From an uncultured Candidatus Saccharibacteria bacterium (GTDB taxonomy: Bacteria; Patescibacteriota; Minisyncoccia; Phycocordibacterales; UBA9973): a stretch of 64,000 nucleotides of DNA. The DNA lies in assembly GCA_964354985.1 (NCBI GenBank), contig CAYHBR010000001.1, forward strand, positions 18,407 to 82,406, given 5' to 3'. Shown here in pieces: positions 20,154 to 50,323 of this stretch; positions within the stretch are counted from its first letter, which is position 1, and each line of letters starts with the position of its first letter. Below the pieces are notes generated by a model. The model saw only the letters and a list, made by a program, of their open reading frames with translations. It had not been told where the DNA came from and ran no database searches. The translations under genes were made by a program, and so were the position numbers.

Positions 20154-20490
20154 GTTGCTTCTATTTTACGGGAAAAAGTCGAGAAATCAAAGGGAAAAAC
20201 TTGATAATAAATTTATCTATATTTGGTATCTTAACCACTATGTCACAAACAACCATGACGGTGAGCTTATTCTACAAATAGCCAAGGATTACTACGAGTC
20301 GAGATTGAAATCTACAATACTCATATCAGGAGACGGTGATTACCATTGCATCATCGAGTTCCTGAAGGAAAAACGGGTGCCGATCACAATCATTTCACCA
20401 AATAAAAGTTATCTTTCATCTTTATTGAGAAAGACGAGAGTTCCAATAGTCATTTTAGAAGATTTCAAACATAAATTAAAAGTAAAATGA
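20152..20490 (+). CDS. NYN/LabA-like domain protein, short and possibly N-terminally degenerate
   Basis: ILISGDGDYHCIIEFLKEKRVPITIIS matches the LabA/NYN C-terminal motif. The ATG overlaps the smc start (CATG). The gene is wedged between smc and DGR-1. Confidence 0.4.
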   Translation: MLLLFYGKKSRNQREKLDNKFIYIWYLNHYVTNNHDGELILQIAKDYYESRLKSTILISGDGDYHCIIEFLKEKRVPITIISPNKSYLSSLLRKTRVPIVILEDFKHKLKVK

Positions 20491-20575
20491 AAAAGCCCCG
20501 GATATGCCGTGACATATCAAGGGTCTCTTTCATACTGATAGGAATATCATAATATATTACCTAAAGACATGCAAG

Positions 20576-21562
20576 TTATTGTAATGTTAATTCTTGCCTT
20601 ATCTTATATCCATTACCATGTTTCAGAAAACCCAAATATGATTGGACTATGTTTTCTTTTCTACCACTTTTCTGAATACACTTCCACATTCTTCGTTTAG
20701 TTACCGTTCGGAGCACTTTATGCCTATGGAAATGAACCCAGCCGAGAAAATCCACGCCAGAAGCCAAGGTTTTTATAAAAACTTTGTCGGGGTGCAGAGA
20801 TAGCTTCAAATTTTCGGTCAAAAAAACTGATATCTGGGACAAGATGGTTTCAAGACTTTTCTTGTCTTGTGACAAAAAGACAAAATCATCAGCGTATCTG
20901 ATGTAGTGTCTTGCTTTCAGCTTATGCTTCACGAACTGGTCAAACTCATTCATATAAATATTTACTAGGATTTGAGAAGTAAGGTTGCCGAGTGGTAAGC
21001 CTTTACCTTTTTCTATTGAATGAAAGCTCATAATAATTTTGGACAATAACCATAGGATATTTTGGTCAGGGATATAACTTGTCATAATTTTAGTTAGCAC
21101 CTCTTGGTCTATCGAAGCAAAAAACTTTCTGATGTCACATTTCAAAACCCAGACTGTCTTTGTATTATTTTTTGAAACGATATTTGAAAAAGCCTCAAAT
21201 CTACTCATCGCCTTGTGTGTTCCTTTTCCTTTTCTACAAGAGAAAGAATCGGAAATAAATGTCTTGTCGAAAAATGGGTATAACTTACGATAAAGTGCAC
21301 GGTGAAGCAACCTATCTCGCACGCAAGCTTTGTGTATACTCCTGGGTTTTGGATCTGAAATATTAAAAGCTTTGTACGGTGAATGTAAATATGTTTTATT
21401 GTAAAGATCATTGTGAAGCGCAATAATATTACCCATAAGGTTTCTCTGAAATAATTGAACATCTTTTCTTTGTCTCTTCCCTTTTACAAATTCACCCCAT
21501 GCTTCAAGCAAATTTTCAAGCGATATGATATCTTGGTATGTATGATCGAATTTAATTCTCAT
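20576..21562 (-). CDS. DGR reverse transcriptase (RT-1)
   Basis: 328 aa. Group-II-like fingers/palm with YADD (RYADDFVF). Motif 4 reads GLPLGNLTSQILVNIY, the DGR hallmark, not the group II intron QGxxxSP. There is no En domain. An adjacent TR/VR pair is present. Confidence 0.85.
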   Translation of the reverse strand: MRIKFDHTYQDIISLENLLEAWGEFVKGKRQRKDVQLFQRNLMGNIIALHNDLYNKTYLHSPYKAFNISDPKPRSIHKACVRDRLLHRALYRKLYPFFDKTFISDSFSCRKGKGTHKAMSRFEAFSNIVSKNNTKTVWVLKCDIRKFFASIDQEVLTKIMTSYIPDQNILWLLSKIIMSFHSIEKGKGLPLGNLTSQILVNIYMNEFDQFVKHKLKARHYIRYADDFVFLSQDKKSLETILSQISVFLTENLKLSLHPDKVFIKTLASGVDFLGWVHFHRHKVLRTVTKRRMWKCIQKSGRKENIVQSYLGFLKHGNGYKIRQELTLQ

Positions 21563-21575
21563 TCCTTAAATATTA

Positions 21576-21585
21576 CCCCCCCCCC
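21576..21585. repeat. C10 homopolymer (G10 on the RT coding strand) about 14 nt upstream of the RT-1 ATG
   Basis: cccccccccc seen directly. The same arrangement recurs upstream of RT-2. Confidence 0.9.
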
Positions 21586-21616
21586 GAGCACTTTTACCAG
21601 TTCTAGGCAGTTTTAA

Positions 21617-21940
21617 AAATCTATATATTTTTGGTACGCTATTTATCAAATATTACCAAAAGCACACAGGCACACTCTGGGACAAAGGATTGACACGCTA
21701 TTTATTGAAAGTATTGAAGCAATTTCAATTGCCAGTTTTTTATCACGACAAGAAAAGCAACCATATGTTCGTGTTGCTATTAGAAAAATCGACACTTTAA
21801 AAGTGTTACTCATGATACTCTGGGAAACCAAATCTATAGACGATAAAAAATACATCGCCCTCTCGGTAAAGCTCGAAGAAATTGGAAAGATGCTCGGCGG
21901 CTGGAATGGACAATTAGCAAAACAAAACTCTCCCAAATAG
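21617..21940 (+). CDS. Avd-like accessory protein (four-helix-bundle / 23S rRNA IVS protein family), plus-strand, with no canonical ATG at the head of the frame
   Basis: A 107-codon open frame ending ..ALSVKLEEIGKMLGGWNGQLAKQNSPK. It is collinear with the plus-strand ORF at 47638..47961 (KLEEVGKMFGGW), and the differences between them are mostly synonymous. The ...ELxxQL...KLEEVGKML.G motif is typical of Avd/IVS proteins. Confidence 0.55.
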   Translation, partial: KSIYFWYAIYQILPKAHRHTLGQRIDTLFIESIEAISIASFLSRQEKQPYVRVAIRKIDTLKVLLMILWETKSIDDKKYIALSVKLEEIGKMLGGWNGQLAKQNSPK

Positions 21941-21960
21941 AGGGAGAGAAATGAAGAGAG

Positions 21961-22087
21961 TTGCGAAACGGCAAACGCGAACCCGTTCTCACGATTCCAC
22001 CTGTTATCAGGCTTGTCATAGTACGCATTGAGCCAACGACCATCGTCGTTACGGTTCGCGTTGAGCAAGTTAGGATCGCCATCGGAA
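21961..22087 (-). repeat. DGR-1 template repeat (TR-1); the ORF-track ORF 21646..22068 is a non-coding artefact of it
   Basis: 127 bp aligning to 22424..22550. About 15 mismatches, all at plus-strand T in this copy (A in the minus sense) against C or A in the other copy. Confidence 0.85.
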
Positions 22088-22342
22088 CGCGCGAGATATC
22101 ATCCGTGCCACCACCCTTTGAGTTCTCTCAGGATTGTATTTTATTCGGCATCGCAATGCCTCAATGTCTCGCGCCAAGTATCTTCGTTTTTGCAGGTTAC
22201 ATGCACTACTCTATCCGAAACCATGATCGCGGATACACTCAATGCAAGGATACTGGGTTCGGTAGCGCCCAACCGTGATCGTGCGCATATTCACCTACTG
22301 CCATCGGCAATTATATCGTATTTTATATTTTATGAAAAAAAT

Positions 22343-22370
22343 AGTCCCCGATTTAAAAAATCGAGGACTA
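22343..22370. other. Hairpin downstream of the target-1 stop (AGTCCcCGATTT-aa-AAATCGaGGACT). A second small palindrome, AGAACTgaAGTTCT, is at 22385-22398, immediately 3' of the VR
   Basis: Inverted repeats seen directly. DGR VRs are commonly followed by a stem-loop. Confidence 0.45.
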
Positions 22371-22405
22371 AGGACTAAATGCAAAGAACTGAAGTTCTGA
22401 GCATC

Positions 22406-23029
22406 TTAATTTTGAGTACTAACTTGCGAAACGGCAAACGCGAACCCGCCCTCACGATCCCACCTGCTATCAGGCTCGCCATAGTACGCAAAGAGCCAAC
22501 GACCACCGCCGAAACGGTCCGCGCTGAGCAAGTTAGGATCGCCACCGGAATCCTTGATCGGTTCGTGCATAGCAACGATCCAGATAAGCCCCATTGCTTC
22601 GATCTCCTCGTCTGTGAACTTTTCACGGATGAGACATGCGATCTCAGCGTTTGGTGTTTCCAATTTGCGATTGGCAGCTTCGCTACGGATCTTCTTAGTG
22701 ATACGGTTGTTGTCTTCGAACAGCATCCCTTTGAGTACCGCAACTTCGGTTGTTATTCCAGAAGTAGGCTTGAAATCTTTTGAAAGTAACACACTCTTAG
22801 CATAATCGCTGAGGCGGTATCCTTTTTTCTCAAGACGCACAATCCATTCTGCCCCGGTAGCGCCGTCAGAAATGACATTGAAGTAAATTACTCCATCTTT
22901 TTCTGTCCAGCTCCTTGCCGGTTCTGCAATAGTGATTTCACCACGAAGGAATCTATTAACTCCTTCTTCTCCACCAAGTTTGTTCCATACGGCTTCTACT
23001 CGGCCAAATGTAATATCAGGATATTTCAT
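22406..23029 (-). CDS. DGR-1 target (variable) protein, 207 aa, with a C-terminal CLec-like variable region (VR-1 at 22424..22550)
   Basis: The C-terminus ..RFGGGRWLFAYYGEPDSRWDREGGFAFAVSQ.. is encoded by VR-1. Residues 1-207 are homologous to the C-terminal ~200 aa of the 613-aa target at 48482..50323. Confidence 0.8.
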   Translation of the reverse strand: MKYPDITFGRVEAVWNKLGGEEGVNRFLRGEITIAEPARSWTEKDGVIYFNVISDGATGAEWIVRLEKKGYRLSDYAKSVLLSKDFKPTSGITTEVAVLKGMLFEDNNRITKKIRSEAANRKLETPNAEIACLIREKFTDEEIEAMGLIWIVAMHEPIKDSGGDPNLLSADRFGGGRWLFAYYGEPDSRWDREGGFAFAVSQVSTQN

Positions 23030-23097
23030 TCTTATAAGTTTTTAGGCTATTAGCCTTTTGTTGCTTACTGTCCGCAAGCTGGAGCGTGACTTTTGTT

Positions 23098-23154
23098 AGC
23101 CATAGCCAGAAAGCACCTCGTCGAAAGGAACCTTTTGGCTATGGCTATTTGCAA
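23098..23154. other. 10-bp perfect inverted repeat (GCCATAGCCA .. TGGCTATGGC) with a 27-nt loop, in the rnc / target-1 intergenic region
   Basis: Seen directly. Possibly regulatory or a small RNA. Confidence 0.3.
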
Positions 23155-23218
23155 GTTAGTTGGAAAGGAACTGTTTTATATTATACTCTTATTAACACAA
23201 AAGTCAATAGCTATGTAG

Positions 23219-23998: not shown

Positions 23999-24898
23999 TT
24001 AGTTCTGGCTAGTTATAAATTCGACTGATTTTTGAATCATAGCGACAGTATCGTCGTATGTTGTCAGGCTTGGTACTTCGGTCACTGGAAACCATTTGGC
24101 ATCGGTGAGACCGTCTTTTTGCTCCAGGAGTAGCGTCTGAAAGGGCGCTTCACCAAGGAAGTATGTCACCTGCTTTCGTATCTTACCCTTTTCTGGATGA
24201 GATGCAATATACTCGTTTTCGCCGAGAACAGTTTTGACAACAATTGGCAAACCGATCTCTTCACCAATATCGCGGACAATACCGTCTTCTGGTGTTTCGC
24301 TATCTTCAAGACTGCCTTTGGAAAGAGTCCAGTAGCCGAAAATGTCATGCACGAGTGCGAGGTATATCATGCCTTCGTGAAGTGCATAGACAACGGCACC
24401 AACTTTTTTCTCAATTGGCAGAGACTCAATGTCGACAAGCTCGTCTTTTTTCTTTTTGGAAACTTCATCTTTGCCTGGCTCGCCGATTTCTTTGTAAACA
24501 GCACCGAGTACTCCATTGATAAACTTACTGGAATTTTCACCACCAAAACTTTTGGCAAGTTCAATAGCTTCGTTGATTGCGACTTTTGGTGGGACTTGGG
24601 TTCTGTCACCAAAAAGAAGCTCAGTGAGCCCCATGCGCAGAATATTTCGATCAACAATATTTATTTTCTCAAGTGGCCAGTCTGGCGCAGCTTTTGAAAT
24701 AATATCATCAACAACAGAACGATGACGCAGTACGTCAGTGGTGAGAGCAAGAATGAAATCGCCATCTTCAAGACCTGGGCCGTATTCTTTGATATCCCTT
24801 TCTACTACATCAGCAACAGCCTCGTCTGGCACCTTACGAAAATCCCACTCAAAGAGTGATTGGAGAACAATGGATCTTGAAAGATGTCGATGTGCCAT
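23999..24898 (-). CDS. nusB: NusB-like antitermination domain fused to a C-terminal NUDIX hydrolase domain
   Basis: The N-terminal ~140 aa are NusB-like (..SRSIVLQSLFEWDF.., ..AINEAIELAKSFGGE..). The C-terminal half carries the Nudix box GSLEDSETPEDGIVRDIGEEIGL. Confidence 0.7.
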   Translation of the reverse strand: MAHRHLSRSIVLQSLFEWDFRKVPDEAVADVVERDIKEYGPGLEDGDFILALTTDVLRHRSVVDDIISKAAPDWPLEKINIVDRNILRMGLTELLFGDRTQVPPKVAINEAIELAKSFGGENSSKFINGVLGAVYKEIGEPGKDEVSKKKKDELVDIESLPIEKKVGAVVYALHEGMIYLALVHDIFGYWTLSKGSLEDSETPEDGIVRDIGEEIGLPIVVKTVLGENEYIASHPEKGKIRKQVTYFLGEAPFQTLLLEQKDGLTDAKWFPVTEVPSLTTYDDTVAMIQKSVEFITSQN

Positions 24899-37639: not shown

Positions 37640-37647
37640 GGGGGGGG
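37640..37647. repeat. G8 homopolymer (C8 in the gene sense) about 30 nt upstream of the giant gene start
   Basis: gggtggggggggtg seen directly in an AT-rich intergenic region. Confidence 0.85.
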
Positions 37648-46523: not shown

Positions 46524-47567
46524 TTAGATGGAAATGCGAGGGATTTTAGGTGGAAATTGCTGGGTTTTTGGTCCGATTTTGGTGGGTTTTCTAAAATTAT
46601 ATATAATCGTTTGCTTAAGTCGATGAGTATTCCCATGACTAAGTAATCCAATATAAGATGTTGTAGTTGCACCTGATTGTCTCTGTCTTAAATTTCTGAA
46701 CATTCTCTTTTTGGTAGATGTCCTTGGCACTCGATGGTACGGGAAATGCACCCAACCGAGAAAATCCACACCTGAGGCAAATGTTTTTATAAATACCTTA
46801 TCAGGATGCAAGGATAGATTGAGTCTTGTCTCTAGAAATGCCGATATTTTTGGCAGAACATCTTCTAAGTATTTTTTGTCTTTATGAAGGATAACAAAAT
46901 CATCCGCATATCTGACGCAGTATGTAATTTTCAAATCTCTCTTAAGAAAGTGATCGAACTCGTTCATATAAATGTTCACTAAAAGTTGGCTCGTGAGATT
47001 ACCAAGAGGTAGTCCGACGCTGTGCCTGTCTTTTGTGTTGAAACTGCCGACAATCTCCTTGAAAAGCCGTATTATATCTTCATCTCCCATTCGGAGTTTC
47101 AAAATATCTTCCAAGATTCTGTGATCAATATTCGCAAAAAACTTTCTGATGTCGCATTTCAGCACCCACATAGTCTGCGTATGATTTTTAGAAACCTTAA
47201 GCGCATAGTTTCGAAATCTATCAAGCGCGCGGTGTGTGCCTTTGCCTCGACGACATGAGTACGAATCAAAAATAAATTTGGTGTCAAAATATGGATACAA
47301 AATCCTATAAATAGCATGGTGGAGAAGCCGATCGCGGACACTTGCCTTGTGAATGTCCCGAGGCTTTGGGTCGTTGATACGAAAAGCTTTGTACGGACCG
47401 TGACGGTATGTCTTGTCGACAAGTTCACGGTGAAGGGCAAGTATATTATCGGTTAGATGCACTGAAAATTGGGCGACATCTTTACGGTTCCGTTTTCCGC
47501 GCAGGAATTCTCGCCACGCAACAAGTAAGTTTTCCACCGAAATGATATTATTGTAGGTATGAATCAA
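46524..47567 (-). CDS. DGR reverse transcriptase (RT-2); the likely true start is the TTG at 47567, and the ORF-track N-terminal extension reads through the poly-G tract
   Basis: 348 aa, about 65% identical to RT-1. Same GLPLGNLTSQLLVNIY and YADD motifs. Homology with RT-1 begins at ..IHTYNNIISVENLL.. Confidence 0.85.
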   Translation of the reverse strand: MIHTYNNIISVENLLVAWREFLRGKRNRKDVAQFSVHLTDNILALHRELVDKTYRHGPYKAFRINDPKPRDIHKASVRDRLLHHAIYRILYPYFDTKFIFDSYSCRRGKGTHRALDRFRNYALKVSKNHTQTMWVLKCDIRKFFANIDHRILEDILKLRMGDEDIIRLFKEIVGSFNTKDRHSVGLPLGNLTSQLLVNIYMNEFDHFLKRDLKITYCVRYADDFVILHKDKKYLEDVLPKISAFLETRLNLSLHPDKVFIKTFASGVDFLGWVHFPYHRVPRTSTKKRMFRNLRQRQSGATTTSYIGLLSHGNTHRLKQTIIYNFRKPTKIGPKTQQFPPKIPRISI

Positions 47568-47577
47568 CCGACTAATA

Positions 47578-47587
47578 CCCCCCCCCC
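47578..47587. repeat. C10 homopolymer (G10 in the RT sense) about 10 nt upstream of the RT-2 start
   Basis: cccccccccc seen directly, in the same position as at RT-1. Confidence 0.9.
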
Positions 47588-47637
47588 GAATTTCGTACAG
47601 CAACGCCTCGATCCTGAGCAGGATCAAAGAGGGATAT

Positions 47638-47961
47638 TTGATTTGGGTTAGTATTGTTCCGCATATTGCTAAAGGTGCTCGCTATACGATAGGTTCACGA
47701 ATTGAGAATAAATTCCTCGACCTGCTTGAACTTTCATACATTGCTTATTTTATAGAAAAAGATAAGAAAGAGGGAAAAATCACACAATGCATTTTAATGT
47801 TGGATACACTAAAGTTTCTTGTTTCTGTTGCATGGGAGGGTAAACTGATTTCAAATGCACACTGCGAGAATGTGGCATTGAAACTCGAAGAAGTCGGCAA
47901 GATGTTTGGTGGTTGGAAGAAAAATCTCGCAAATCCCGAAAAGAAAAACCGCGATCTATAA
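47638..47961 (+). CDS. Avd-like accessory protein (four-helix bundle / 23S rRNA IVS protein family), TTG start, on the opposite strand from RT/TR/VR
   Basis: 107 aa ..IAKGARYTIGSRIENKFLDLLELSYIAYF...VALKLEEVGKMFGGWKKNL. Conserved with the locus-1 frame with synonymous third-position changes. The antisense ORF-track ORF 47745..48149 has a low-complexity, nonsense-like translation here. Confidence 0.65.
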   Translation: MIWVSIVPHIAKGARYTIGSRIENKFLDLLELSYIAYFIEKDKKEGKITQCILMLDTLKFLVSVAWEGKLISNAHCENVALKLEEVGKMFGGWKKNLANPEKKNRDL

Positions 47962-47994
47962 AAACTATAGCAGTCGCGGAAAAGAAAATAGTTT

Positions 47995-48123
47995 CGGAGA
48001 CGGAACACGAACTTGTTGTCCGGATTCCACTCATTACCCTGTTTCGCCCAATTGTTGTTCAGCCACAAACCATCACCGTCGCGTTTGAGATTGAAGACGT
48101 TCGAGTTACCGTCAGAGTCAGTA
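47995..48123 (-). repeat. DGR-2 template repeat (TR-2); the ORF-track ORF 47745..48149 is a non-coding artefact of it
   Basis: 129 bp aligning to 48498..48626. About 21 mismatches at TR adenines (plus-strand T against C/A/G in the VR) and a single non-A mismatch. Confidence 0.85.
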
Positions 48124-48481
48124 TTTGTGCGGCATGCCATCTGTGTCACTGCCGACTTAAGCGCACCATGTGCCAGAAGCCGTGCTGTATTGGTATGCGT
48201 GATCTAACCCAGTAGGCGATCCTGTTGGATCGAAATCACCCAGCGCGTCGCACCAAGTTTTTTCTTTTTAAAGACCTCTATGTAAATCCTCCGCGAAAAG
48301 CCGTAACCGTTCGCGCTCTCAATCCACACGAAGTAAATTGGTCTTGAAAAACCGTAGCCGTTCAATGAAACCAATCTAGAAATAGTATACCAAAAAAACT
48401 GAACTCGCTTCGCGAGTAAATGCCAAAGGGTCAAAGAACCCAAGAGTCAAAGAATCAGAAAAATACAAAGAAACAATTGGT

Positions 48482-50323
48482 CTAAGATTTAGACTTGCGG
48501 AGACGGAACACGAACTCGTAGCCCGGAGAACACACAAAACCCTGCGACGCCCAACTGTAGTACAGCCACAAACCAACACCGTCGCGTCCGAGAAAGAAGA
48601 CGTACGAGTCACCGTCAGAGTCAGTAATTTGCTTCATTCCAATACGCACCCATTCATTGAGGGGTTGATCTTTGTATTTGAGGCGATAATTCGGACCAGT
48701 ATCGGGTGGACATAATTCTAAACCAAGCTTTTGCGCTCGCTCAAATATTTGGTCAGTTGTGGCATTTGTCTTGAATCCAAGATCGGCGACAGTGAGGCGG
48801 ATGAGGGTGGCTTCTTCTTGATTCTTCCCTGGAATAAAGTCCGGGTTTTTCATCATGGATTTTGCGTAATCAGAAATGTTGATTTTAGCAGTCTCCATTT
48901 CGGAAATGAGCTGTTCTGCTGTCTTTCCGCCGATCACAATGTTCTCTCTGCGGATTTTCTTGTCAGGAAAAGACGTGTACACATGCTCAAGATTTTCCGG
49001 CAATTTTTGAAAGATTCCTGGCTCAAGCTGGCCAACATAGGCTTTGGTATTTTCGTCTATTTCGCTAGGTACGTGGGCAATTTGATCTTTACTGCAATCA
49101 AAAATGACGAGCATGTCTGCCTCGGTATTTCTGCCTGCGCGAAGTTCGGCAATACGCGGGTCGGTCTGGTAACCGAAACCTTCGATTGAGGAGTTTATTT
49201 CATACAAGAATATCAAATCGTCTTTATTGAACGGCTCTTCCTGTTCACGCTTCTGGTCGAGAGCAGTAAGCATTTTCATGTCATTGCTTTTCTTTCGGTA
49301 CGCATCTGCTTCACCACCAAAATCCTGGAGTTTTGTATCAAGCGCTTCCTGCATAATTGGCTCTACTCCCTGGTGCGGCAGAACACCCCGAACTTCGCCG
49401 ATTCGGTTATCGCCATCCATGCGGATGGCAAGACGAGGCTGGGTCGGCTCACCATTTGAGTCGTTCGTATAGAAAACATAGAAGTCGCCATTTTCGATTT
49501 GCGCTTCAGCAGTTGCCTGACCGGCAGTACACCAACCAGTACCCTTACCATCGAGCGAATCATATAATTTTTCAGCGGCGCCGTCTTCGCCTTGTTCATA
49601 TTTTTTCCATTCACCTTTGACTTCCTCGCGGTTCTCCATTGAAGCGGCGAGAGATTTTGAAATGAGTTCGGCGTATAAGCTCGGAAACTTTTGAGAAAAG
49701 GCTTCGCGGATCTCGGGTTCTTTGAGATTTTTATTATCCTCCTTAACTTTAAGATAAATGTCGGCGATTTGCGCCAACGGCTCACGGTAGATATCGGGGT
49801 ATGGTGCAACAGTACTATCGGTACGCTTTTTGAACTCGCCACGCTCTTTGTCGAATTGGGAAAGTTTGGTGATATTTTTCCAAACAAAGTATTTGAACCA
49901 TGCAGGATACATGGCATCGTCTGAAGTAAGGTAGTCCATCCATGAATCAAGTGATGCACGTTGATCTTCAATGGCAACATTCATCATCTGCTCGCGGACA
50001 TTTTCTGGTATTTCCTCTACCGATTGTCCTCGTTCGCGGGCAATGCGTTTCTGCAACTCAAAATATGATTCAGGAAAATTCTCCTTCTTTATGATGAACG
50101 CATCATAGATTTTATCGCGAAACATTTCGAGATTGCGTTCGCGTTTCTTTTCGTCAGGGTTGAGAAAAACATTCTCCAAACGATCCATATAAGCCTCAAT
50201 ACGCTCGGAAGGATCGTTAGGCATTTTTTCGCCAGTGTGACGTTCTTCTCGTACAACGGCTCGATTTACCTCAGGAGAAGTTTGGAGTTCTGGGCTCTTA
50301 ATGTGGAGTGGATGCTTTTCCAT
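48482..50323 (-). CDS. DGR-2 target (variable) protein, 613 aa, with a C-terminal CLec-like variable region (VR-2 at 48498..48626)
   Basis: The C-terminus ..DSDGDSYVFFLGRDGVGLWLYYSWASQGFVCSPGYEFVFRLRKSKS is encoded by VR-2. The C-terminal ~200 aa are homologous to the 207-aa DGR-1 target. Confidence 0.8.
   Translation of the reverse strand: MEKHPLHIKSPELQTSPEVNRAVVREERHTGEKMPNDPSERIEAYMDRLENVFLNPDEKKRERNLEMFRDKIYDAFIIKKENFPESYFELQKRIARERGQSVEEIPENVREQMMNVAIEDQRASLDSWMDYLTSDDAMYPAWFKYFVWKNITKLSQFDKERGEFKKRTDSTVAPYPDIYREPLAQIADIYLKVKEDNKNLKEPEIREAFSQKFPSLYAELISKSLAASMENREEVKGEWKKYEQGEDGAAEKLYDSLDGKGTGWCTAGQATAEAQIENGDFYVFYTNDSNGEPTQPRLAIRMDGDNRIGEVRGVLPHQGVEPIMQEALDTKLQDFGGEADAYRKKSNDMKMLTALDQKREQEEPFNKDDLIFLYEINSSIEGFGYQTDPRIAELRAGRNTEADMLVIFDCSKDQIAHVPSEIDENTKAYVGQLEPGIFQKLPENLEHVYTSFPDKKIRRENIVIGGKTAEQLISEMETAKINISDYAKSMMKNPDFIPGKNQEEATLIRLTVADLGFKTNATTDQIFERAQKLGLELCPPDTGPNYRLKYKDQPLNEWVRIGMKQITDSDGDSYVFFLGRDGVGLWLYYSWASQGFVCSPGYEFVFRLRKSKS

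Follow-up and report, generated by a model that had tools for sequence, protein, structure and literature searches.

Two diversity-generating retroelement cassettes of Architecture B3 on a Patescibacteria contig carry reverse-strand avd genes, one of them frameshifted

We analysed a 64,000-nucleotide stretch of DNA from an uncultured Candidatus Saccharibacteria bacterium (GTDB lineage Bacteria; Patescibacteriota; Minisyncoccia; Phycocordibacterales; UBA9973; NCBI GenBank assembly GCA_964354985.1, contig CAYHBR010000001.1, positions 18,407 to 82,406 of the forward strand). This whole stretch is referred to as the window, and positions are counted from its first letter. The window contains two diversity-generating retroelement (DGR) cassettes, locus 1 and locus 2. 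In both, the reverse transcriptase (RT), the template repeat (TR) and the target gene with its variable repeat (VR) lie on the minus strand, and a gene for the protein Avd (avd1 or avd2) lies on the plus strand between TR and RT (Table 1). The motifs LGNLTSQ and YADD are legible in the translations of the RTs adjacent to these frames, and RT1 has at least 7987 homologs at E≤1e-60. Each VR is situated at the 3' end of a coding target, and at both loci the differences between TR and VR fall at template adenines. Read in the minus sense, all of the mismatches in the TR1-VR1 core (15/15) are changes from A to G or T, and the mismatches between TR2 and VR2 are adenine-specific as well (24 A-to-N changes). 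RT2 is 59% identical to RT1 from residue 3 onwards and, judged by sequence, the two cassettes are divergent paralogs.

An initial annotation, made by a model from the letters of the window, had described the two plus-strand frames as Avd-like, and the evidence from profiles, composition and structure agrees with it. Searched with profile hidden Markov models, avd1 and avd2 score 46.3 and 45.8 bits with the Pfam bAvd family PF22296, both passing its gathering score of 40. As that annotation had stated, the avd1 frame is open for 107 codons (after TAA at 21614-21616, to TAG at 21938-21940) and has no ATG, GTG or TTG near its head, the first such codon being GTG at 21803; the locus 2 frame at 47638-47961 does begin with TTG. 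The motif KLEE[IV]GKM occurs exactly twice in the window, against 0.01 occurrences expected by chance. We retrieved 1707 homologs of avd1; the best of them, 75-81% identical, are from genomes and metagenomes of Patescibacteria (the candidate phyla radiation, CPR) and, if annotated, carry the name "four helix bundle protein". Codon-position entropy and synonymous codon use among the avd sequences reveal protein-coding constraint over the whole frame. The divergence between the two loci had been thought mostly synonymous, which proved wrong: of 96 aligned codons, 17 are identical, 19 synonymous and 60 non-synonymous, and the two proteins share 38% amino-acid identity.

Both proteins are basic, with isoelectric points of 9.7 (avd1) and 9.1 (avd2); Wu et al. 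2018 (NAR 46:11, PMC5758913) give 9.5 ± 0.7 for Avd. As a stand-in for the window proteins we used the AlphaFold2 model of P0002, a homolog 79% identical to avd1. This model (pLDDT 89) consists of four long helices, at residues 2-18, 23-48, 52-78 and 84-100, which form a bAvd-like four-helix bundle. Compared by Foldseek, it matches bAvd (4dwl) with a TM-score of 0.74-0.82, the range being 0.72-0.82 when 4dwl and the DGR ribonucleoprotein 8ub7 are taken together. Its top matches are proteins of the 23S rRNA intervening-sequence family (PF05635; PDB 2gsc and 2rld; TM-score 0.76-0.83), with which it shares the fold. The window proteins differ from that family in that the PF05635 profile stays below its threshold (17.3 bits against 33.8), whereas bAvd PF22296 passes, and in that their genomic context is a DGR. 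We conclude that the plus-strand frames are real Avd genes, each encoding the basic four-helix-bundle partner of a DGR RT. By analogy only, these proteins would be expected to form pentamers and to bind RT and RNA.

The coordinates confirm at both loci that avd is opposite in strand to RT, TR and VR, as the initial annotation had reported. This order is that of Architecture B3 of Wu et al. 2018, written TR-(avd)-RT with parentheses denoting the reverse strand, to which 90% of the CPR DGRs in their set belong; the authors add that cassettes of the B3 type need at least two transcription units. For comparison we fetched 80 related loci out of 440 matching places, from one-genome-per-species contigs, and detected an RT in 72 of them. 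In 71 of these 72 loci, as in the window, RT and avd are on opposite strands and the RT lies upstream of avd, mostly no more than about 130 nt away; a co-oriented avd, considered canonical in the initial annotation, is not the rule among related cassettes. The suggestion that the window holds a distinct DGR architecture stands relative to the Bordetella phage prototype; it does not stand as a novelty, because the arrangement is the catalogued Architecture B3. For CPR DGRs, avd on the reverse strand is the usual and already known layout, which calls for no new explanation. The window cassettes share with B3 the order of target gene with VR, TR, reverse avd and RT, the host group (Patescibacteria) and a basic Avd of about 105-120 aa, and in architecture they do not differ from it. 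Beyond what the consulted parts of that paper describe, they have a repeat at the junction of RT and avd, an unconserved Avd start, and an avd 3' end that overlaps a hairpin adjacent to TR.

Three of the contigs with this type of cassette are binned under other names (L001, Methanosarcinales archaeon; L010, Nitrospira sp.; L074, Gammaproteobacteria bacterium); these are probably mis-binned short CPR contigs.

The two loci differ in the 5' part of avd. The Avd N-terminus of the relatives carries the conserved sequence (I/L)LP(V/L)LxK(V/L)KxxYLLW, ending at an invariant tryptophan, which is W6 of the reported avd1 frame and which we number as codon 0. Third-position variability indicates translation of this segment from codon -14 or thereabouts, both the periodicity and the synonymous variation reaching to -14, and in the P0002 model it makes up most of helix 1. 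At locus 1 the same segment is present, displaced into another frame. An alignment with 12 relatives (MAFFT) contains a single 1-nt gap, found in the window sequence alone and situated in TATATTTTTGG; because of this deletion the N-terminal segment stands in a different frame from the body, so that avd1 does not start at 21617. Of the 17 helix 1 residues, 12 are thereby out of frame. Locus 1 stands alone among the 76 anchored loci that no contig end truncates in having a frame that stays open for only 5 codons upstream of the tryptophan, all others having at least 17. We looked by translation for a canonical start in the frame of the avd1 N-terminal segment and found none; avd1 has no complete reading frame with an initiation codon that covers helix 1. 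Judging from its sequence as assembled, avd1 cannot yield a complete four-helix bundle by ordinary translation, and since the deletion cuts the greater part of helix 1 off from the remaining protein, it is probably a non-functional, inactivated copy.

The VRs behave differently at the two loci. Over 4 kb at locus 2, the differences between the window and contig L085, from another sample, are a poly-C tract longer by one C and 22 substitutions, every one of them inside VR2 (48516-48621) and 21 of the 22 at TR adenines. Such changes at TR adenines from one sample to another show directly that the DGR of locus 2 is active in the population sampled. Contigs L086, L088 and L089 end at 48515/48516, the edge of VR2, a pattern that heterogeneity of the VR within a sample would produce. 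An exact-protein look-up of the locus 2 target returned no record, but the same DNA is present in contig NODE_296, and this negative was given no weight. The three assemblies of locus 1, one of which shares its sample with L085, are identical across the cassette, VR1 included, except for the length of the poly-C tract. An unchanged VR1 fits a loss of function of avd1, and the cassette with intact avd is diversifying while the one with broken avd appears static, which is a correlation. The description of avd as a decaying accessory gene can be kept for locus 1, with its frameshift in three assemblies and identical VR; it fails for locus 2, where the frame is intact and the VR varies.

From the Avd identity, orientation, frameshift, VR variation and hairpin covariation (described below) observed here, we consider it likely that both cassettes are ordinary members of a large Patescibacteria (CPR) DGR clade with Architecture B3, that their plus-strand frames encode Avd, and that locus 1 is broken and locus 2 active. 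We put the probability of this reading at roughly 0.85. In such cassettes RT and avd would be transcribed in opposite directions from a very short junction, in the window one of about 55-70 nt, with avd converging on TR. By analogy with the Bordetella phage system, a complex of RT and Avd would bind RNA just downstream of TR and copy TR with errors at adenines, and the resulting cDNA would replace VR. Several results count against this view. Across the family, no canonical start codon is conserved at any position between codons -19 and -1. With the NCBIfam Avd equivalog model NF033474, avd1 and avd2 score 61.1 and 54.7 bits, both below the cut-off of 80; by this model the two frames are divergent members of the Avd family rather than equivalogs. 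Consensus promoter scans of both junctions returned no convincing promoter for avd or RT. Finally, the contrast in activity between locus 1 and locus 2 comes from few assemblies of one project, and the locus 1 contigs were retrieved by their exact target protein, which biases the comparison towards identical VRs.

Table 1. Positions of the features of the two DGR cassettes in the window
Feature	Position	Strand	Remarks
DGR reverse transcriptase, locus 1 (RT1)	20576..21562	-	328 aa, ATG start; Pfam RVT_1 E=2e-26
Poly-C tract (C10), locus 1	21576..21585	.	RT-avd junction, 13 nt upstream of RT1 ATG on RT strand
Displaced avd1 N-terminal segment (LLPVLGSFKNLYIF)	21591..21632	+	Most of helix 1; in other frame than body; by three-frame translation
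avd1 body	21617..21940	+	Homologous part from W at 21632
avd1 1-nt deletion site (TATATTTTTGG)	21624..21634	+	Between conserved codons Y(-3) and W(0)
Conserved hairpin 21948->21928 with U-run (UUUUGUUUUG) to 21918	21918..21948	-	12 nt 3' of TR1, on TR-sense strand
Template repeat TR1	21959..22094	-	Adenine-mutagenised core ~21961-22081; TR-VR alignment 136 nt
Terminator-like hairpin 22370->22342 (13 bp), then sigma-70-like site (10/12) 22338->22310	22310..22370	-	Consensus scan
Target gene, locus 1	22406..23029	-	207 aa; VR1 at 22422-22557
DGR reverse transcriptase, locus 2 (RT2)	46524..47567	-	347 aa, probable TTG start; Pfam RVT_1 E=6e-24
Poly-C tract (C10), locus 2	47578..47587	.	RT-avd junction, ~10 nt upstream of RT2 start on RT strand
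avd2	47605..47961	+	First canonical start TTG 47638; homologous N-terminal helix in frame up to ~47611
Interrupted hairpin 47979->47949 with U-rich run	47938..47979	-	3' of TR2, overlaps avd2 stop; z-score -1.5, weaker
Template repeat TR2	47995..48139	-	TR-VR alignment
Target gene, locus 2	48482..50323	-	613 aa; VR2 at ~48498-48641

At locus 2 the avd frame is intact, and the lack of an ATG has a different origin. The sequence ILSRIKEGY, homologous to helix 1 of the family, stands in frame before the TTG. The TTG itself is codon -2, inside helix 1; conserved coding sequence extends about 10 codons further upstream, and no canonical start lies upstream of the TTG before the stop at 47560. In the 72 related loci we recorded the first usable canonical start. 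It lies between the junction repeat and codon -10 in 44 loci; 32 loci, of which 16 are also among the 44, have one in frame upstream of the repeat; in 7 loci the only start comes later than codon -10, and 5 have no canonical start. Locus 2 belongs with the minority that has a late start only. Two candidates for a common start were rejected. Codons -13 and -14 are not conserved as starts, codon -13 being TTA in 27, TTG in 24 and CTA in 12 loci and codon -14 being ATT, CTT or GTT; an ATG antisense to RT His7 was dropped as a universal start, for in the loci with poly-C it is no more often in frame than roughly expected by chance. The start-codon anomaly that the initial annotation had noted is accordingly of two kinds: a real 1-nt deletion at locus 1, and at locus 2 an initiation site whose position is not conserved.

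Both loci carry a homopolymer tract at the junction of RT and avd, and these two poly-C tracts are the only C/G runs of at least 9 nt in the 64-kb window. The only other C/G homopolymers of at least 8 nt are a C8 at 44194, upstream of the end region of the gyrB ORF, and a G8 at 37640. At the same junction position, 47 of the 72 related loci have a poly-C of 7-13 nt, and about 14 have repeats with units of 2, 4 or 7 nt, namely (AACC)n, (GCCA)n, (AATC)n, (TCAG)n, (ACGA)n, two 7-nt units and (AC)n. In full-length related loci, C/G runs of at least 8 nt are found at this junction in 23 out of 23 cases and nowhere else. The length of the repeat is polymorphic, as seen at the level of assemblies, in four populations. 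The locus 1 tract is C10 in the window and C11 in the two other assemblies; the locus 2 tract is C11 in L085 and C10 in four other assemblies; 10 contigs that carry the identical RT P0218 have either C10 or C11, with a linked single-nucleotide polymorphism; and four contigs of the RT P0200 population have three (AC)n alleles.

Contingency loci are marked by repeats whose unit length is not divisible by three and whose total length is polymorphic within populations. Known examples are the (TA)n repeat in the divergent promoter of Haemophilus hifA/hifB, the poly-G/C tracts in 5' coding regions of Neisseria and Campylobacter, and the poly-C tracts in the Bordetella fim promoters (PMC1891110). The junction repeat resembles such loci in being a homopolymer or a repeat of 2-, 4- or 7-nt units that lies at a gene's 5' end or between divergent genes, at a fixed position, and varies in copy number within populations. 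It differs from them in that its link to expression is hypothetical and in that a start codon is found downstream of it in many relatives.

Control of DGRs by the junction repeat is the only part of this analysis with potential for novelty, and full-text searches of the literature returned no report linking a DGR to repeat control or to repeat-mediated phase variation. The repeat could be a contingency switch, in which slipped-strand changes of length shift the avd frame relative to an upstream start and turn DGR mutagenesis on or off in subpopulations; we regard this as a tentative idea that is rather less probable than its absence. A variant, in which repeat length retunes the divergent 5' regions of RT and avd, we hold to be doubtful to the same degree. 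If there is such a switch, the C10 tracts and start-less avd of the window would be one (OFF) phase of it. The persistence of a repeat with a unit not divisible by three at the same position in about 60 of the 72 related loci, the confinement of long C/G runs to the junction and the variation in repeat length in four populations between essentially identical flanks all favour a switch, although some of the differences in homopolymer length could be assembly noise and the related loci are not phylogenetically independent. An in-frame start lies upstream of the repeat in 10 of the 14 loci with 2-, 4- or 7-nt units; among the loci with poly-C the proportion in frame is 17 of 47, which is the chance rate and cannot tell a switch from neutrality. 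In one sub-clade an ATG or TTG abuts the poly-C, in frame in L050, L055, L034 and L027 and out of frame in L049, L039, L074 and L024. At both window loci a tract of C9 or C12 would join the upstream ATG to the conserved Avd N-terminus. However, in the 44 loci whose canonical start falls between the repeat and codon -10, the length of the repeat would make no difference. At locus 2, moreover, both alleles (C10 and C11) are OFF with respect to the upstream ATG, yet VR2 is diversifying, which argues against a simple translational switch at this locus.

It is also conceivable, but in our judgement unlikely, that avd1 is intact in the cell, either because the frameshift is an artefact of sequencing or assembly or because slippage by -1, in translation or transcription, on the A/T stretch TATATTTTTGG bypasses it. 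The deletion does sit in a T5 run where tRNA-Phe could re-pair in the -1 frame, and the rest of the gene, free of further stops and frameshifts, is 75-81% identical to intact homologs. An artefact is difficult to reconcile with the presence of the same deletion in three independent assemblies from different runs, and a conserved recoding site with the absence of the break from the other 75 anchored loci. Even if slippage occurred, the N-terminal frame would likewise be without a canonical start, and VR1 is invariant where VR2 varies, even within one sample (ERZ4201065). We therefore retain the reading of avd1 as a probably inactivated gene.

The 3' end of avd is constrained by more than its protein. 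At locus 1 a hairpin with a U-run on the TR-sense strand overlaps the avd codons K-Q-N-S-P and the stop; it was flagged as terminator-like by a scan and has a fold-energy z-score of -3.9. Immediately after TR, the relatives have, in TR sense, the consensus CGCAACUCUCUUCAUUUCUCUCC, a variable inner stem and loop, and GGAGAGUUUUGUUUUG. Folded together with RNAalifold, 46 distinct sequences share a stem of 9 bp in which 4 pairs show compensatory changes. Synonymous variation in avd collapses only at codons +95 to +99, and the distal arm of the hairpin is conserved even where the avd stop falls in the loop; it is consequently the nucleotide sequence of the hairpin that is constrained. Putative Avd-binding stem-loops are described by Handa et al. 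(bioRxiv 10.1101/2023.10.23.563531), commonly of 9 bp, in 207 of 278 Avd-carrying DGRs, CPR members included; these lie just downstream of TR, the element of the phage being Sp5-32. By analogy, the hairpin adjacent to TR in the window is most likely such a stem-loop, and its U-run may in addition terminate the TR transcript.

Constraint on the nucleotides themselves is limited to some 55 nt adjoining TR, ending in the U-run, and with only this much conserved 3' of TR a long Sp-like RNA is not evident. As a candidate, a long RNA of the Sp type antisense to avd was discarded, since synonymous sites are unconstrained save in the last 8 or so codons. That the plus-strand frame is no protein gene at all, its conservation merely reflecting the antisense of a long TR-RT spacer RNA like the essential 140-nt non-coding Sp RNA downstream of TR in the Bordetella phage, might seem to gain from the nucleotide-level constraint on the last avd codons, but is effectively refuted by the codon-level analysis, as between codons -13 and +94 both the entropy at third positions and the use of synonymous codons are high, the leucine codons TTA and CTA would read as antisense stops, and the Pfam match and the four-helix-bundle fold of the P0002 model favour a protein.

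The prototype DGR, that of Bordetella phage BPP-1 (mtd-avd-TR-brt; Handa et al., PMC6182149; bioRxiv 10.1101/2023.10.23.563531), shares with the window cassettes the adenine-specific transfer from TR to VR, the Avd four-helix bundle (by way of the P0002 model and the TM-scores to 4dwl and 8ub7 given above) and a stem-loop directly downstream of TR, at the position of the BPP-1 Avd-binding element Sp5-32. It differs in that avd lies upstream of TR and is co-oriented with it, and in that a 140-nt non-coding spacer parts TR from brt, where the window cassettes have an inverted avd between TR and RT.

Signals of transcription were sought in the sequence around locus 1. The terminator-like hairpin at 22370->22342 follows the target gene, and the promoter-like site next to it is upstream of TR1, which suggests that TR1 may be a separate short transcription unit. 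If so, read-through from TR to RT across the antisense avd would not be a given. The initial annotation had reasoned that any such read-through transcript would be antisense to avd; this is now uncertain, as the hairpin and U-run downstream of TR may end the TR transcript. An extended -10 element on the RT strand, arising from the avd codons ATT-TTA-CCA, was dropped as a candidate because both window loci and many relatives lack it. A search of positions 20400-23200 with Rfam gave nothing meaningful.

Two further observations concern the neighbouring coding sequences. Public calls of the locus 2 RT in L085, L086 and L087 vary with the length of the poly-C tract (337, 347 or 359 aa), and a mechanical list of open reading frames has it at 367 aa (46524-47627, minus strand). 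The open frame of RT2 extends upstream through the variable poly-G, its called start thus being unstable; the likely start is TTG at 47567. Near locus 1, an ORF of 299 aa at 23999-24898 on the minus strand combines NusB (PF01029) with NUDIX (PF00293) according to precomputed Pfam matches for the public contig, an unusual fusion.

These results bear on annotation as well as on the biology of the family. Public gene calls miss or truncate the avd genes of these cassettes, avd1 being annotated as a 42-aa fragment only and avd2 as a protein of 107 aa with a bAvd match, so that the extent and identity of the frames described here have practical value for annotation. The two loci also offer a natural comparison within one genome, of a broken avd with a static VR and an intact avd with a diversifying VR. 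If control by the junction repeat were true, these DGRs would place a stochastic phase-variation switch atop a targeted hypermutation machine, and this would be the first described slipped-strand on/off control of DGR mutagenesis.

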